A stretch of 64,000 nt of DNA from Myxococcota bacterium (GTDB taxonomy: Bacteria > Myxococcota_A > UBA9160 > UBA4427): contig OZ252299.1 in NCBI GenBank assembly GCA_965250285.1, positions 5,408,001 through 5,472,000 on the forward strand, given 5' to 3'. Below are positions 54,777-64,000 of the stretch, in pieces. The notes beneath the pieces are model-generated. The model ran no database searches. It was given only the letters and a program-made list of their open reading frames with translations, and was not told the origin of the DNA. A program made the translations under genes and the position numbers. How positions within the stretch are numbered: the first letter of the stretch is position 1; each line of letters opens with the position of its first letter.

Positions 54777-55781
54777 GTGGCTGACCCCGAAGAGGGCCGC
54801 CGAACCCCCCGCGCCGCCCCGCCCGGCGCCCGCCTGCTCGATCGCCTGCGCGCTGCCTGTCGGCTTCGACACATGAGCCTGCGCACCGAGCAGGCGTACG
54901 TCGGCTGGGTGAAGCGCTATCTGCACTTTCACGATCTGACGCACCCCGACGAGATGGGTGCGGCCGAGGTCGTCGCTTTTCTGAGCGACCTGGCCGTGCG
55001 CCGCGAGGTCGCCGCCTCGACTCAGAACCAGGCCCGCGCCGCGCTCGTGTTTCTGTATGAGGAGGTGCTGGGCCGCGACCTCGAAGGCCTCGACGCCGCC
55101 GTGCGCGCTCGCACTCCCGTGCGCCTGCCCGTGGTGCTCGACCGCGACGAAGTGCGCGCCCTGCTCGCCGCCCTCGAAGGCGAGCACGCGCTCATCGCCC
55201 GGCTCTTGTATGGGTCGGGCCTGCGCATCTTCGAGTGCCTGCGCCTGCGCGTGAAGGACATCGACGCCGCCCGAAGGCAGATCGTCGTGCGCTCAGGCAA
55301 GGGCGACCGCGATCGCGCGACGCTCTTCGCCCGCTCGCTCGAAGAGCCCATCGCCGCCCAGCTCGTACAAGCCCGCGCCCTCTACGAGGACGACCGAAGA
55401 CGCGGCCTCCCCGGCGTCTCACTGCCCACGGCCCTCGCCCGCAAGTACCCGAACGAGAACCTCTCGTGGGGCTGGCAATGGCTCTTCCCCTCCCGCCGCG
55501 TCTCGACCGACCCCCGCACCCGCCGCCCCCACCGTCACCACCGCCACGTGAGCGGCCCCCAACGCGCCATCCGCCTCGCCGCCCGCAAAGCCGGCATCGA
55601 GAAACGCGTCACCGCCCACACCCTGCGCCACTCGTTCGCCACCCACCTGCTCGAATCAGGCTCGGACATCCGCACTGTGCAGGCCCTGCTCGGCCACCGC
55701 GACCTCAAGACCACGATGATCTACACCCACGTCCTCGACCGAGGCCCGATGGGCGTCCGCAGCCCCGCCGACGACCTGTGA
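54777..55781 (+). CDS. intI: Integron integrase
   Basis: [33 protein letters not shown], integron-specific ALARKYP...[23 protein letters not shown]...TTMIYTH; catalytic residues intact. Confidence 0.97.
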
Positions 55782-55974
55782 CCCACCCCCAGCGATCGCC
55801 CCGCCACCTACTCGCAGCCCCCCAGCCACATCATTCCCTTACGCAGCACCATGCGTCGTTTACGACCTATCGCGACATCGGCGCAATGAAGCCAAGTCGG
55901 CGGATTCGTGGGGGATTGAGCGAGGAGCCCCGCTCAGTCGCTAGATTATGAAGCGAAGCCCAGCGGCGGGCGCT

Positions 55975-55996
55975 GGGTGGTCAATATTAGTTAGGC
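55975..55996 (+). other. attI site (core GTTAGGC 55990-55996)
   Basis: GTTAGGCCGCGTA here is the exact reverse complement of TACGCGGCCTAAC ending cassette 1; no attC upstream. Confidence 0.8.
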
Positions 55997-56034
55997 CGCG
56001 TAACCCGGCGCTTGAGCGTGGTTGTCCAACGGGC

Positions 56035-56460
56035 ATGCTTCGGGCCTTCGGTCGATCTCTTCTTTGGCTGTTTGCCGCTATCGGTGTCGGCGCGGTTTCC
56101 CTGTCGGCGTACTCCGTCTCTGGCAGAGTTGTCTGCAGGCTCGAAGACCGCGTCTCTGCCCAACTCTTGCAACTGATGTCCGCCCTCGAGTTCTATCGGC
56201 TCGATAATGGTCGGTTTCCAACAACGGAGCAGGGCCTCGAAGCTTTGCTGTCGAGACCGGCGGCTGGTCCCCAGCCCGAATCGTACCCCGAAGGTGGGTA
56301 TCTCGGTGAACGTGCCTTGATATGTGACCCATGGGGCGAGCCAGTTCGTTACTCACACGAGAGCGACTCACTTGTGCTTGTTTCGATCGGTGGTCCGGAA
56401 TGCATATGCGAACACGCTACGCGGCCTAACAAGCCGTTGCAGCGGACTTGCTCCCGCTGA
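56035..56460 (+). CDS. Cassette 1: GspG-like (T2SS pseudopilin G domain) protein
   Basis: ALEFYRLDNGRFPTTEQGLEALL...GGYL...DPWGEPVRY; no GFTLxE prepilin motif. Confidence 0.75.
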   Translation: MLRAFGRSLLWLFAAIGVGAVSLSAYSVSGRVVCRLEDRVSAQLLQLMSALEFYRLDNGRFPTTEQGLEALLSRPAAGPQPESYPEGGYLGERALICDPWGEPVRYSHESDSLVLVSIGGPECICEHATRPNKPLQRTCSR

Positions 56461-56554
56461 GGCGATATCGGGTCGTGGTAGAATGTCGGCTACCCGAGGC
56501 GTTCAGCCGCTGCGAGCAAGGTCGCCGCAAGCCGCTGAACGCCGACCGTTAGGC
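56424..56554 (+). repeat. attC 1
   Basis: GCCTAAC AAGCCGTTGCAGCGGAC...GCCGCTGAACGCCGACC GTTAGGC. Confidence 0.93.
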
Positions 56555-56602
56555 AGCGTTCCAGTCAGAGTCATGGTCTTCGGTGCAGCCTGAGATGACG
56601 CA

Positions 56603-56818
56603 GTGACGAAGCGGAATCTGATCGCGATCGCTTCCGTCCTGTTCCCCGCTATGGCAGTTGCTGGCTGCGTCGATCTCGTACTTCCCATCGAGATCGTCGA
56701 TTTCGGTGCAGGAATCGCAGGTGACCGTCCTCTTGCGAAGTGGGTCCCTTACTTCGCCATCGCACTTGGCGGTACGTTCGGAAGCTGGGCGCTATGGAGC
56801 CGCCTGCCTCCCGACTAG
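56603..56818 (+). CDS. Cassette 2: small 2-TM protein
   Basis: 71 aa with two hydrophobic segments; fills the cassette. Confidence 0.6.
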   Translation: MTKRNLIAIASVLFPAMAVAGCVDLVLPIEIVDFGAGIAGDRPLAKWVPYFAIALGGTFGSWALWSRLPPD

Positions 56819-56851
56819 CTGACAGCTATTCGTGTCGCGAGGCTCCACGCT

Positions 56852-56982
56852 GCCTAACAAGCCGTTGCAGCGGACTTGCTACCGCTGAGGCGATATCGGG
56901 TCGTGGTAGAATGGCCGGCGTCCGAGGCGTTCAGTCGCTGCGAGCAAGGCCGCCGCAAGCCGCTGAACGCCGACCGTTAGGC
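56852..56982 (+). repeat. attC 2
   Basis: Same family, 131 bp. Confidence 0.93.
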
Positions 56983-56990
56983 GGCGTGCC

Positions 56991-57275
56991 GTGATCACGA
57001 GGTACTCGGTCGCAGCTCTGGCAGCCGTCGCTGTCACGGGCTCCGCGTTCTGGTTCGGCTCGTCGTTGCTCGACCGCGAAGCAGCGGCGCATTGCCCCAA
57101 GAACGACCTATACGAACTCTCGAAGCGCAGCCGATCGGAATGCCGAGTCGCCCATTCGCGCGACTGTAGTTCCTCCTGCGAGCTGGTCATGACCGATGTC
57201 TATGCGGCCGACTGCAGCAGCTCCATGTTCGTTGAGGTGTGCGTTCCGTCGAGCGAGCTTTCTGCGTTCCGATGA
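56991..57275 (+). CDS. Cassette 3: small Cys-rich exported protein
   Basis: N-terminal hydrophobic helix, 6 Cys; duplicated as cassette 7. Confidence 0.65.
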   Translation: MITRYSVAALAAVAVTGSAFWFGSSLLDREAAAHCPKNDLYELSKRSRSECRVAHSRDCSSSCELVMTDVYAADCSSSMFVEVCVPSSELSAFR

Positions 57276-57306
57276 GTTGCTCAAGCGAAATGGCGTGCCA
57301 GACGCC

Positions 57307-57437
57307 GCCTAACAAGCCGTTGCAGCGGACTTGCTGACGCTGAGGCGTTGTCGGGTCGTGATAGAATCACGGACATCCGAGGCATTCAGTCGCTGCGAGC
57401 AAGGCCGCCGCAAGCCGCTGAACGCCGACCGTTAGAC
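57307..57437 (+). repeat. attC 3
   Basis: Same family, 131 bp. Confidence 0.93.
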
Positions 57438-57459
57438 CGCCAGAGCACAGGAGGCGCGC

Positions 57460-58077
57460 GTGGCAAAGCTCAAGGACAAGGTGCTTGAGATCGCCGGAAT
57501 TGCGAAAGAGTGCCCGGAGAATCTCCAGGCGATTTGCTTCGAGTTGCTGCTTCGGCACCACCTCGACTCGCTCGCGCCGCGATCGCCGAAGCCAACGCCA
57601 CAGGCGACACCTGAGCCCGAGACTCCTAAGGAAGAGAAGAAGCAGACGGTCGAAGAGGCGGCTTCTTCTCAAGACGATCTCTCGGAGACAGATCTCCACG
57701 TCAAGGTCCGTCGGTTCATGGAGAAGTACGCACTATCGATAGAAGACTTGAGCAACCTCTTCTACAAGGAAGATGGAGAAGTGCTCCCGTTGTACGAGGA
57801 TTTGAAGACAACGAGGCTCGCTGAGGGGCAGGTTCGAATCGCACTTCTGCAGGCGCTGCATTCGGCGATCTCGCACGGCGAATTCTCTTGCCAGGTCGAA
57901 GCTGTCCGAGCGGAGTGCAAAGACCGAAAGTGCTACGACCAGAACAACTTCGGCAGCAACTTCACCAAGAACGCAGTTCTTTTCGACTTCGACAAGTACG
58001 GCAAGTCGGTGAAGACGATCAAGCTGTCTGAGGATGGTCGAAAAGAACTTGCGGCAGTCGCCAAAGAGCTTCAGTGA
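57460..58077 (+). CDS. Cassette 4 gene A: hypothetical protein with possible C-terminal winged helix
   Basis: AGGAGG RBS; 205 aa ending NFGSNFTKN...IKLSEDGRKEL. Confidence 0.75.
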   Translation: MAKLKDKVLEIAGIAKECPENLQAICFELLLRHHLDSLAPRSPKPTPQATPEPETPKEEKKQTVEEAASSQDDLSETDLHVKVRRFMEKYALSIEDLSNLFYKEDGEVLPLYEDLKTTRLAEGQVRIALLQALHSAISHGEFSCQVEAVRAECKDRKCYDQNNFGSNFTKNAVLFDFDKYGKSVKTIKLSEDGRKELAAVAKELQ

Positions 58078-58083
58078 GCACGC

Positions 58084-58905
58084 GTGGACGCGACTCTCAA
58101 GACATTCCACGATGATCTGAAGGCGCTCAAGCGGGATCTCAAAGCTGAAGAGAATCCACGGGTTGCCAAGAAGGGCCTACGCGAACGCGCTGAGGAACTC
58201 GGGTCACGGTGGTTCAGCGAGCTGGCGCCTGGCCTTTCAAAACTGGGGTTCTCGGCTGAACTCGTCGAGAAGTACTCCGCTGCCTGCGCGCGACTAATCA
58301 AACTCAGCGCCCCAAACAACCTGAAGAAGAGCTACCTCGAGTCCATCGATGTACTCGTCAAGCCTATGCGCGACGAGCTGATTCTTCCGATCAAGTCCGG
58401 CGTCGTATCCAGCCAAGCGGTCTCTCCCTTCAATGAGTTCGTCGCCAACCTTGAAGCCGCTGAAGAGAGCGCCTATTTCCAAGAGTCGATCGATTGTGCC
58501 AAGAGCGGCTACCTACGCGCGGCGGCAGTCCTAGGCTGGTGCGCTGCGGTCGATCGAATTCATCGCAAGATTGAGGCAGATGGGTTCTCAGTCTTCAATG
58601 TGGCATCTGCCCAAATGGCAAGTCAAAAGAAGGGCCGCTACAAGCGATTCAACCAGACGCAGAACGTCACCTCAATCAGCGAGCTCCGTGAGGTCTTCGA
58701 TACCACGATCCTTTGGGTCATCGAAGGCATGGGGTTGATTGATTCGAACCAGCACACTCGACTCCGAAGCTGCTTCGAGATGCGCTGCCACTCTGCCCAC
58801 CCAGGCGACGCGCCGATCACTGAGTACAACCTGCTCTCGTTCTTCTCCGATCTGCAACAGATCGTCCTAGAGAATCCGTCCTTCGAAATCCCGACCGATA
58901 GCTAG
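58084..58905 (+). CDS. Cassette 4 gene B: HEPN-like domain protein
   Basis: YFQESIDCAKSGYLRAAAVLGW and Rx4H motif RCHSAHP. Confidence 0.72.
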   Translation: MDATLKTFHDDLKALKRDLKAEENPRVAKKGLRERAEELGSRWFSELAPGLSKLGFSAELVEKYSAACARLIKLSAPNNLKKSYLESIDVLVKPMRDELILPIKSGVVSSQAVSPFNEFVANLEAAEESAYFQESIDCAKSGYLRAAAVLGWCAAVDRIHRKIEADGFSVFNVASAQMASQKKGRYKRFNQTQNVTSISELREVFDTTILWVIEGMGLIDSNQHTRLRSCFEMRCHSAHPGDAPITEYNLLSFFSDLQQIVLENPSFEIPTDS

Positions 58906-58915
58906 GCGTCTGGCG

Positions 58916-59045
58916 GTCTAACAAGCCGTTGCAGCGGACGTGGCAACGCTGTGCCGATATCGCTCGTGGTAGAATCACGGAGTCCCAGGCTTCGGCCGGC
59001 GCGGTGCAAGGTTGTGCCACGCCGCTGAACGCCGATCCGTTAGGC
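58916..59045 (+). repeat. attC 4 (divergent centre)
   Basis: GTCTAAC...GTTAGGC, 130 bp. Confidence 0.92.
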
Positions 59046-59320
59046 CGCGTGGCACAAGGCCCTCTAGTTGCTGGGTGCCGATTCCTGCCCACCGCCTTCT
59101 CGAACCCGGCAGCTCGTTGCGAGCTCGCTAGCTAGTTGACCTGCTCGCTTCGCCCTTAGGTCACTCCCGACAGATCGCATGCGACGCATCGCCAAAGTGG
59201 CCACAACCGGCTCTCTGGGGCGAGCTTCGCCTTCGGTCTGCTCGATCCAACTCGACTGCCGAATCCCATCTTGGCAGGGGGTAGGGCGGTAGAGGGTCTG
59301 CTCTTCGCACGCGGTCTAAC
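59039..59320 (+). other. Cassette 5: gene-less cassette family, copy 1
   Basis: 282 bp; homologous to the units at 61354, 62771 and 63722; no conserved long ORF. Confidence 0.88.
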
Positions 59321-59444
59321 AAGCCGTTGCAGCGGACTTGCTACCGCTGAGGCGCTTTCGGTTCTTGGTAGAATCTCGGGCGTCCGAGGCGTTCAGCCGC
59401 TGCGAGCAAGGCCGCCGCAAGCCGCTGAACGCCGACCGTTAGAT
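59314..59444 (+). repeat. attC 5
   Basis: GTCTAAC...GTTAGAT, 131 bp. Confidence 0.93.
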
Positions 59445-59806
59445 GGCGGAGACGCGAGATAGGACGTTACAAGTTCAAGCTTGGCCAGAAGCCACGACGA
59501 AAGCGCCGGTTAGATTCCGGGCGTACGCGCATTCGTCGAGGTGGCGATCCGACGGCAGCAGGAAGAGAGCGGGGCGATCCGATTTCTCCCGAAGAGCGTT
59601 GGGTTCCGAGCTTCGACGACGTAATTGCAGCATTGGTCGTCATTTCGCTGATCACATTCTTCATTGCCGCGTTCTGTTCTCTTGGCCACTGTTCATGTGC
59701 GGGGCTGAGTGCTTACTCGAACTCTCGAGTGAGTCTCGTCACTCCGTTGCCCCTGCAGATTCGCCCGCCATCTAACAAGGCGTTGCAGCGGACTTGCTTA
59801 GGCTGA
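59443..59806 (+). CDS. Cassette 6: hypothetical protein, frame ambiguous (ATG 59443-59775 or ATA 59459-59806)
   Basis: Two overlapping stop-free frames; the second has a GGAG RBS and a TM helix. Confidence 0.4.
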
Positions 59807-59908: not shown

Positions 59909-60193
59909 GTGATCACGAGGTACTCGGTCGCAGCTCTGGCAGCCGTCGCTGTCACGGGCTCCGCGTTCTGGTTCGGCTCGTCGTTGCTCGACCGCGAAGC
60001 AGCGGCGCATTGCCCCAAGAACGACCTATACGAACTCTCGAAGCGCAGCCGATCGGAATGCCGAGTCGCCCATTCGCGCGACTGTAGTTCCTCCTGCGAG
60101 CTGGTCATGACCGACGTCTATGCGGCCGACTGCAGCAGCTCCATGTTCGTTGAGGTGTGCGTTCCGTCGAGCGAGCTTTCTGCGTTCCGATGA
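59909..60193 (+). CDS. Cassette 7: duplicate of cassette 3
   Basis: Identical 94-aa protein. Confidence 0.65.
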   Translation: MITRYSVAALAAVAVTGSAFWFGSSLLDREAAAHCPKNDLYELSKRSRSECRVAHSRDCSSSCELVMTDVYAADCSSSMFVEVCVPSSELSAFR

Positions 60194-61229: not shown

Positions 61230-61360
61230 ACCTAACAAGCCGTTGCAGCGGACTTGCTCCCGCTGAGGCGATATCGGGCCGTGGTAAACTGGCCGGCGTC
61301 CGAGGCATTCAGCCGCTGCGAGCCAGGTCGCCGCAAGCCGCTGAACGCCGACCGTTAGGC
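61230..61360 (+). repeat. attC 9
   Basis: ACCTAAC...GTTAGGC, 131 bp. Confidence 0.93.
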
Positions 61361-61634
61361 CGCGTGGCACAAGGCTCTCTAGTTGTTGGGTGCCGATTCC
61401 TGCCCACCGCCTTCCCGAATCGGGCAGCTCGTTGCGAGCTCTGGCGTTGGCTGATCTGCTTGCTTCGCCCTTAGGTCACTCCCAATAGATCGCATGTGAC
61501 GCATCGCCAAAGTGACCACAGCCGGCTCTCTCATGCGCGCTTCGCCTTCGGCCTGCTCATCCCACCCGAGAGCAGAATCGAGGCTTGGCAGGGGGTAGGA
61601 CGGCAGAGGGTCCGTCCTTCGCACGCGGTCTAAC
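61354..61634 (+). other. Cassette 10: gene-less cassette family, copy 2 (most diverged)
   Basis: 281 bp, homologous to copy 1. Confidence 0.88.
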
Positions 61635-62242: not shown

Positions 62243-62653
62243 ATGGACGATGTCGCGTACGTCCGACGGGTCATGTGGCTGCCTTCGTTCGTCCCGTTTG
62301 TGCTTGCCGCAATGGATGATCTTTCGAACTACTCCGTTGGTTCATACATCCAAAGTAGTCTCATGCTGGGAGCTGCGACCTATCCTGCCTTCGTTCTGAT
62401 CTCGCGGTACGCGTTTCGCGCCGACGGGCGGCGTGCCCATTGGGCGCTGTTGTTCGCTTCTCCCATCGCCTTTCCAGTCTTCTACGCGTCTGTGAATGGA
62501 ACGATCTGGTACTCTGAAGATGGCTGGGGCATAGGCCTGTATGTGTTTATGCTCTTCTATTCTCTCGTGCTCTGTATTCCACTCGGCTATGCATTCGCGC
62601 TCGTAGCATGGGCTGCCAGAAGACTCTGGCTCCGTCGCGACAACGCCGCCTAA
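62243..62653 (+). CDS. Cassette 12: ~4-TM membrane protein
   Basis: 136 aa, hydrophobic; TAA stop lies in the R'' box. Confidence 0.72.
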   Translation: MDDVAYVRRVMWLPSFVPFVLAAMDDLSNYSVGSYIQSSLMLGAATYPAFVLISRYAFRADGRRAHWALLFASPIAFPVFYASVNGTIWYSEDGWGIGLYVFMLFYSLVLCIPLGYAFALVAWAARRLWLRRDNAA

Positions 62654-62777
62654 CAAGCCGTTGCAGCGGACTTGCTAACGCTTGAGGCCAACCGGCTCGT
62701 GGTAGAATCTCGAAGTCCGAGGCGTTGTCAGTCGCTGTGCCAGATCGGCGCAAGCCGCTGAACGCCGACCGTTAGGC
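62648..62777 (+). repeat. attC 12
   Basis: 130 bp. Confidence 0.92.
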
Positions 62778-63052
62778 CGCGTGGCACAAGGCCCTCTAGT
62801 TGTTGGGTGCCGATTCCTGCCCACCGCCTTCTCGAATCGGGCAGCTCGTTGCGTGCTCGCCAGCTATCTGACCTGCTCGCTTCGCCCTTAGGTCACTCCC
62901 GACAGATCGCATTCGACGCATCGCCAAAGCGGCCACAACCGGCTCTCTGGGTCGAGCTTCGCCTTCGGTCTGCTGGATCCCACTCGACTGCCGAACTCCA
63001 GCTTGGCAGGGGGTAGGGCGGTAGAGGGTCTGCTCTTCGCACGCGGTCTAAC
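62771..63052 (+). other. Cassette 13: gene-less cassette family, copy 3
   Basis: 282 bp, homologous to copy 1. Confidence 0.88.
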
Positions 63053-63597: not shown

Positions 63598-63728
63598 GCC
63601 TAACAAGCCGTTGCAGCGGACTTGCTAACGCTGAGGTGATTTCGGGTCGTGGTAGACTGGTCGAAGTCTGAGGCGTTCAGCCGCTGCGAGCAAGGCCGCC
63701 GCAAGCCGCTGAACGCCGACCGTTAGGC
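63598..63728 (+). repeat. attC 14
   Basis: 131 bp. Confidence 0.93.
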
Positions 63729-64000
63729 CGCGTGGCACAAGGCCCTCTAGTTGTTGGGTGCCGATTCCTGCCCACCGCCTTCTCGAATCGAGCAGCTCGT
63801 TGCGAGCTCGGCAGCTAGCTGATTTGTTCGCTTCGCCCTTAGGTCACTCCCGACAGATCGCATGCGACGCATCGCCAAAGTGGCCACGGCCGGCTCTCTG
63901 GGGCGAGCTTCGCCTTCGGCCTGCTCATCCTACTTGAGTGCAGAACTCCAGCTTGGTAGAGGGTAGGGCGCCAGGGGGTCTGCTCTTCGCACGCGGTCTA
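63722..64000 (+). other. Cassette 15: gene-less cassette family, copy 4 (its attC lies beyond the window)
   Basis: Homologous to copy 1; window ends in CACGCGGTCTA. Confidence 0.88.

Follow-up and report, generated by a model that had tools for sequence, protein, structure and literature searches.

The two genes at positions 57460-58905 of the 64,000-nucleotide stretch of Myxococcota DNA analyzed here (the window) form a real, well conserved and apparently unnamed two-gene HEPN module, in which a predicted winged-helix protein (gene A) is paired with a predicted HEPN RNase (gene B) and for which a role in defense is predicted. That the pair serves anti-phage defense in some form we consider probable. 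If this is true, the pair is a two-gene HEPN defense system of compact size (1.45 kb) and broad distribution that carries no name in PADLOC-DB 2.0, NCBIfam 20 or the papers we searched, and it would give a first function to the Pfam family PF27235 and to the Pfam-less partner family of A. It would also be a minimal case of a winged-helix protein gating a HEPN RNase without a retron. The module is small and self-contained. Since HEPN defense effectors and integron defense cassettes are already well known, such a system would not be new in kind.

The integron cassette

The original prediction had placed the two genes in an integron cassette, and this was borne out. Positions 57460-58905 belong to a true cassette, which lies between attC sites whose 14-nt core sites are complementary, and an integron integrase gene, intI, is located upstream at 54777-55781 (NCBIfam TIGR02249, E 9.8e-132) on the forward strand, which is also the strand of the cassettes. 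The attC site of the previous cassette (57303-57436, forward strand, repeat start 57309, core GTT at 57431) is a member of a 144-nt repeat family, and its bottom strand folds into a hairpin of -31.1 kcal/mol, as calculated without a shuffle control. Core pairing identified the cassette's own attC site at 58912-59046 (forward strand, repeat start 58918): the 14 nt at 58909-58922 and the core at 57431-57444 are exact reverse complements of each other. The cassette thus opens with the 57431 core and closes with this attC site.

Both genes lie on the forward strand. Gene A (57460-58077) starts with GTG and encodes a predicted regulator or sensor of 205 amino acids, and gene B (58084-58905) encodes a predicted RNase of 273 amino acids. 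The strong ribosome binding site and the 6-bp gap that had been pointed out earlier are present, the former as AGGAGG at 57449-57454 (forward strand), 5 nt before the GTG, and the latter at 58078-58083. The start codon of A is separated from the cassette core by 29 nt.

A whole-genome scan found 49 attC sites in the main array, which continues beyond the window. Of the 48 intervals between them, 47 measure 398-765 bp. The A-B cassette, fourth after the integrase, measures 1609 bp, more than twice the next largest (765 bp), and it is the sole one with two long genes; the earlier description of it as the only two-gene cassette therefore holds for two genes of the size of A and B. Its GC content is 0.56, compared with about 0.70 outside the array, and each gene occurs once in the 6.25-Mb genome. 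DNA contigs from three runs that belong to a single study, which may be the source sample, list no changed letters within A or B; no RNA holder was listed.

Several other features of the array were observed. Its first cassette (55948-56460) codes for a GspG-like protein (T2SSG, E 1.2e-17). One cassette with a cysteine-rich 94-aa ORF is duplicated (56991-57275 and 59909-60193), another cassette is present three times and a 97-aa ORF twice, and 59443-59775 has copies beyond the window; duplicated cassettes of this type are a sign of an active array. Ten intervals measure 398-400 bp (58918-59316, 61232-61630, 62650-63048, 63600-63998 and six beyond the window). Those within the window are mutually similar and mostly free of ORFs of at least 55 aa, one of them directly follows the A-B cassette, and they may be cassettes that carry a promoter or an RNA instead of a gene. 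Of the 54 attC sites of the genome, 38 (in the window from 56426 on, and beyond it) contain an extended -10-like motif (TGnTAGAAT or TGGTAGACT type), which has a constant offset of 49-50 nt, is directed into the next cassette and has no -35 element; by motif count, the attC upstream of A carries one at 57359-57367. Such a motif may give the attC sites a promoter of their own. A second cluster of five attC sites of the same family lies at about 109240-111540 of G000:C1, with no integron integrase match near it.

Predicted structures and families of A and B

The AlphaFold2 model of B (mean pLDDT 93.2) contained two domains, a predicted four-helix bundle at residues 1-111, where a helical N-terminus had been proposed, and a HEPN domain at about 113-270 that bears R234-x4-H239. 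Structural matches to the bundle were generic (talin, vinculin, designed bundles). For residues 126-272, the top structural row was the HEPN protein AF_0298 (Z 11.4, rmsd 2.8, 113 aligned), and lower rows held the HEPN domains of AbiA, sacsin and SO_3166. Foldseek alone on the whole of B returned no match at E<=0.001. Dandelion and DARNA chains were absent from the structural lists of B, an absence that excludes nothing, and Atlas look-alikes (DUF4145 and AbiJ_NTD5 at 0.88-0.89) serve as leads only. At the profile level, the B family matched the PDB entry Dandelion-hepn with E 1.3e-5 and with the Rx4H motifs in register. Predicted structure and profile together place B in the HEPN superfamily, as originally proposed. 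The motifs on which that proposal was based were located at E134-x3-C138, RAAAVLGW 145-152 and RCHSAH 234-239. Of the 115 relatives in the alignment, 114 retain R234 and 114 retain H239, residues that conform to the Rx4-6H pattern. The conserved motifs in A and B are not due to chance, and the model leads us to predict that B is an active HEPN RNase.

Homologues of B formed 864 clusters, and all 120 that were listed carry the tag PF27235, for which the Atlas gives the name AF_1680. A profile search with the B family recovered 1097 representatives at E<=0.001. Of 115 family members, 39 hit the PADLOC model PD-T7-3, the best of them with E 1.6e-5; the window's own B gave no match to it. PHROG 27609, an unannotated phage family of 418 positions with an N-terminal HEPN, matches B with E 2.2e-10. 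A look-up of clusters for ten distant relatives of B gave no useful names, and neither did Pfam, PADLOC and NCBIfam searches with the window's A and B proteins.

Among 150 listed representatives of the B family, 61 consist of the bundle and a full HEPN domain, and 12 carry the HEPN domain behind another N-terminus. Pfam assigned some of these N-termini to a DnaJ-type zinc finger, leucine-rich repeats and a nucleotidyltransferase; others appeared membrane-like or winged-helix-like by inspection. Because the same HEPN domain stands behind other N-terminal domains in these 12 representatives, the four-helix bundle of B looks like an exchangeable input socket. The fusions in question include P0291, P0321, P0289, P0345, P0353, P0293, P0303, P0338 and P0260, which form a set of putative single-gene candidates. 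Homology between the winged helix of A and the winged-helix-like N-termini was considered and found unsupported (match probability 0.2-4%).

The AlphaFold2 model of A (mean pLDDT 86.5) begins with a conserved helical hairpin (residues 2-38) in which P19 and C26 are invariant. A disordered linker of variable sequence (40-62) leads to a folded region (64-205) that comprises an alpha/beta segment (64-115) and a winged helix (116-205). Winged-helix chains filled the top structural rows for residues 116-205 (best Z 6.5, rmsd 2.8, 77 aligned), Foldseek matched this region to SSV1 F-93 (probability 0.96, E 0.05), and the predicted model contains the three helices plus wing of a winged helix-turn-helix. 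This agrees with the earlier view that A ends in such a region, there recognized by LSEDG, which occupies residues 189-193 and whose G193 was kept in 137 of 137 relatives. A predicted winged-helix fold does not by itself demonstrate DNA binding. The helix at 161-170 follows a conserved RKCYD and bears conserved asparagines (N163 in 136/137), and R126, R150, R156 and K157 lie near it; together they may form a nucleic-acid-binding face.

The family of A has 514 homologue clusters, and none of the 120 listed carries a Pfam tag. Gene A itself matched nothing in Pfam or NCBIfam, its 137 relatives matched nothing in PADLOC at E<=0.01, and its Atlas neighbors were all unnamed. A second, diverged paralogue of A was seen upstream of the pair in one element represented by four records (L084:1719-2258, L102:1391-1930). 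Its hairpin is conserved (E 4.8e-10) and its winged helix is cut short, so that it may be either a remnant or an extra sensor.

Gene pairing, distribution and neighborhood

We fetched 100 loci by way of B; the 5' end was intact in 95, of which 88 offered at least 150 nt of upstream sequence. Gene A was located directly upstream of B in all 88 checkable loci with intact B, which collapse to about 65 sequences when grouped at 90% identity. The co-conservation on which the original prediction depended was thus found. Of 90 cases (window included), 89 had a gap of -4 to +12 nt between the genes and one, L063, did not, and pairwise identities of A and B were correlated (Spearman 0.68, 49 loci). In three loci with room for A yet without it, B was a 5'-truncated remnant. 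No third recurring gene was found among the neighbor ORFs. From the gene pairing we infer that A and B bind each other. An apparent A-B fusion, P0393 (417 aa, one contig), was rejected as evidence for a complex: a single residue occupies the stop position, and the protein was taken to be a read-through or frameshift artefact. The chimeric-looking P0339, P0292 and P0352 were treated in the same manner.

Broken copies of the pair were of two kinds. In L017 and L097, B contains a nonsense codon and A is intact. In L063, a 64-nt deletion takes the end of the winged helix of A and leaves B intact, a single case that may be an assembly artefact.

Named genomes with the pair belong to Gammaproteobacteria, Alphaproteobacteria, Planctomycetota, Acidobacteria, Nitrospirae, WOR-3, Clostridia, Bacteroidota and further groups. 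Sampling of 1200 genomes, in three sets of 400, yielded no copy beyond the three seeds, and plasmid and phage records gave no match. Genome searches with A recovered the seed genomes only, and a viral scan with A recovered none. The pair was located on two viral contigs, both of which also carry A; in one of these (L103:4352-5810) it sits amid head and structural genes, in a moron-like position. Of 51 distinct loci, 7 showed cassette-type core pairing, the window's own among them, compared with 36 of 2550 mismatched pairs (1.4%). The pair is rare and mobile, with a patchy distribution across many phyla.

Of 40 loci, some of them kin, 11 had defense genes (PADLOC E<=1e-20) next to the pair, compared with 1 of 20 control windows, which were random 6.5-kb windows of the host genome only (one-sided Fisher p 0.037). 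The value became 0.011 once both generic matches were dropped, namely one radical-SAM protein beside the pair and a sigma-54 activator that was the control hit. The PADLOC input from the neighborhoods was a hand-picked set of 79 of 168 ORFs. Matches included AbiL, type I and II restriction-modification, GmrSD, DpdJ, PLD-helicase and several PDC candidates, and in the examined flanks 29 of the 40 loci had no strong defense neighbor. The enrichment is suggestive.

Mode of action and comparison with known systems

We tentatively favor the reading that the pair is an abortive-infection system, in which A is an inhibitor-sensor and B an RNase released by infection. HEPN nucleases form their RNase site as dimers, and B would dimerize via its HEPN domains in this manner. 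The tethered N-terminal hairpin of A would dock on the four-helix bundle of B, keeping it silent, and the winged helix would read a phage-derived nucleic-acid signal and not its own promoter. Upon release or rearrangement, B would cut tRNA or rRNA, translation would stop and the phage cycle would remain incomplete. The assignment to defense is based on the HEPN fold and the conservation of R234 and H239, the strict A-B pairing, the patchy, mobile distribution together with the defense neighbors, and the fact that the nearest characterized HEPN relatives of B are phage-defense RNases. The choice of an inhibitor-sensor follows the precedent of Retron-Kva2 (type IX), in which a WH protein wraps the HEPN protein, alone mitigates its toxicity and is needed for defense (10.64898/2026.07.14.738597). 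If the whole of A were needed to neutralize B, then L063, with its shortened winged helix and intact B, fits badly; set against L017 and L097, the broken copies cut both ways.

Only slightly less probable than this reading is that A is an activator. B would then be self-inhibited, and A would bind a phage nucleic acid or protein and cluster B via its hairpin, turning the RNase on as in DARNA or RAZR, but with the functions divided over two proteins. DARNA (PD-T7-3), the nearest characterized HEPN relative, needs ssDNA and oligomerization: it is a dodecamer that cleaves tRNA anticodons when activated by ssDNA after infection (10.64898/2026.02.22.705581). This activation proceeds without a partner gene, and RAZR and HepS are reported to be non-toxic until activated (PMC13434031); both points favor an activator. 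So do the fusions that join the same HEPN to the zinc-finger and other N-termini described above, the intact B that L063 retains after losing the end of the winged helix, and the cassette copies, which leave no room for a promoter. However, full-length B without A was found in 0 of 88 loci, though an obligate activator predicts the same pattern, and the A-then-B order and the Retron-Kva2 precedent suit an inhibitor.

A classical type II toxin-antitoxin system, in which A would be an unstable antitoxin and operon repressor and the pair would stabilize mobile DNA or impose stress dormancy with no special role against phage, we judge distinctly unlikely. The coupled, co-conserved operon with a DNA-binding-fold gene in first position, the disordered linker in A and carriage on mobile elements would suit it, and integron HEPN domains have been proposed as stress-dormancy RNases (PMC3710099). 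Inverted repeats with arms of at least 7 nt, some of which are attC hairpins, occurred in 12 of 42 leaders compared with 13% in shuffles and argue mildly in the same direction. However, in all 7 cassette copies the distance from the recombination core to the start of A was 28-52 nt, too short for a promoter with an operator. The 42 unique 200-nt leaders shared no motif beyond shuffles, although they may contain a weak operator, and no sigma-70 consensus promoter was found in 55700-59100. Moreover, the pair is rare, unlike common addiction modules, and had no plasmid match. With such short leaders and no shared upstream operator motif, the winged helix of A is unlikely to serve classical autoregulation and sensing is the better guess, so that self-regulated toxin-antitoxin was the less likely half of the original prediction.

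Most improbable of all is a mobile RNA-processing or regulatory pair outside defense, with A as a transcription factor for other genes and B as a specific RNase. In its favor, many loci sit amid housekeeping genes, the window proteins match nothing in PADLOC or NCBIfam and the fold of A resembles generic regulators and replication proteins (Z 5-6.5). Against it, there is no third conserved gene, the spread is patchy, the neighbors are of defense type and HEPN relatives work in conflict systems.

A more specific proposal, which we regard as unlikely, describes a retron-free, stand-alone winged-helix and HEPN immune system. A would directly read phage nucleic acid via its asparagine-rich helix, its hairpin would plug into the socket of B, this socket would be one of several exchangeable inputs on a single uncharacterized HEPN family, and extra A paralogues could add triggers.

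No named system matches the pair, in line with the original prediction: it has no MNT, no reverse transcriptase and no DARNA architecture. The pair was likewise undescribed in the literature within our scope, outside which lie subscription journals, bioRxiv supplements and large prediction-screen tables such as that of DefensePredictor, which may list it. The consulted part of the DefensePredictor report names four HEPN systems, DS-11 among them (PMC13092281). In AbiV, going by the portion of the source at hand, the antitoxin is an RNA. HEPN-MNT (type VII, HepT/MntA) resembles the pair as a two-gene unit with the regulator first and the HEPN second, the HepT-type SO_3166 is among the fold matches of B (Z 8.5), and a nucleotidyltransferase fusion occurs in one distant relative of B. 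However, A has no nucleotidyltransferase domain and models as a hairpin plus winged helix. The AbiJ/DUF4145 HEPN proteins (including RAZR, Taranis and Esos) share a C-terminal HEPN behind an exchangeable N-terminal domain and integron carriage, but they are single-gene systems, whereas B is a member of PF27235 and has A as its partner. Abi-type HEPN proteins are known to have variable N-terminal domains (PMC3710099, PMC13434031), and Taranis and Esos are integron-borne HEPN defense genes (10.1101/2024.07.02.601686).

With PD-T7-3/DARNA and Dandelion, B shares a homologous HEPN domain with a canonical Rx4H followed by P. From its size, its 12 chains and its N-terminal HEPN, the PDB Dandelion (9wxf/9wx2) appears to be a PD-T7-3 relative; a literature search found no paper on the Dandelion HEPN. 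The architecture differs: DARNA is a single gene with an N-terminal HEPN (1-159) and a 300-aa C-terminal ssDNA-sensing domain (10.64898/2026.02.22.705581), whereas B has 273 aa, carries its HEPN C-terminally behind a four-helix bundle and is accompanied by gene A.

The type IX retron likewise pairs a HEPN RNase with a partner whose C-terminal domain is of the winged-helix/HTH kind. Unlike the retron, the A-B cassette has no reverse transcriptase or ncRNA. A scan of 147 of 168 neighbor ORFs found no RT family, the six-frame ORFs of loci L001-L103 contained no RT-like motif, and relatives of A or B showed no sequence link to the PADLOC retron models. B has the canonical Rx4H, whereas the Retron-Kva2 HEPN lacks Rx4-6H, and the retron WH binds HEPN through two alpha-beta domains where A has a helical hairpin and linker (10.64898/2026.07.14.738597). 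The likeness to the type IX HEPN-WH module would therefore be one of functional analogy. Taken together, the comparisons suggest that the A-B pair works most like the type IX retron HEPN-WH module and shares its nuclease lineage with PD-T7-3/DARNA.
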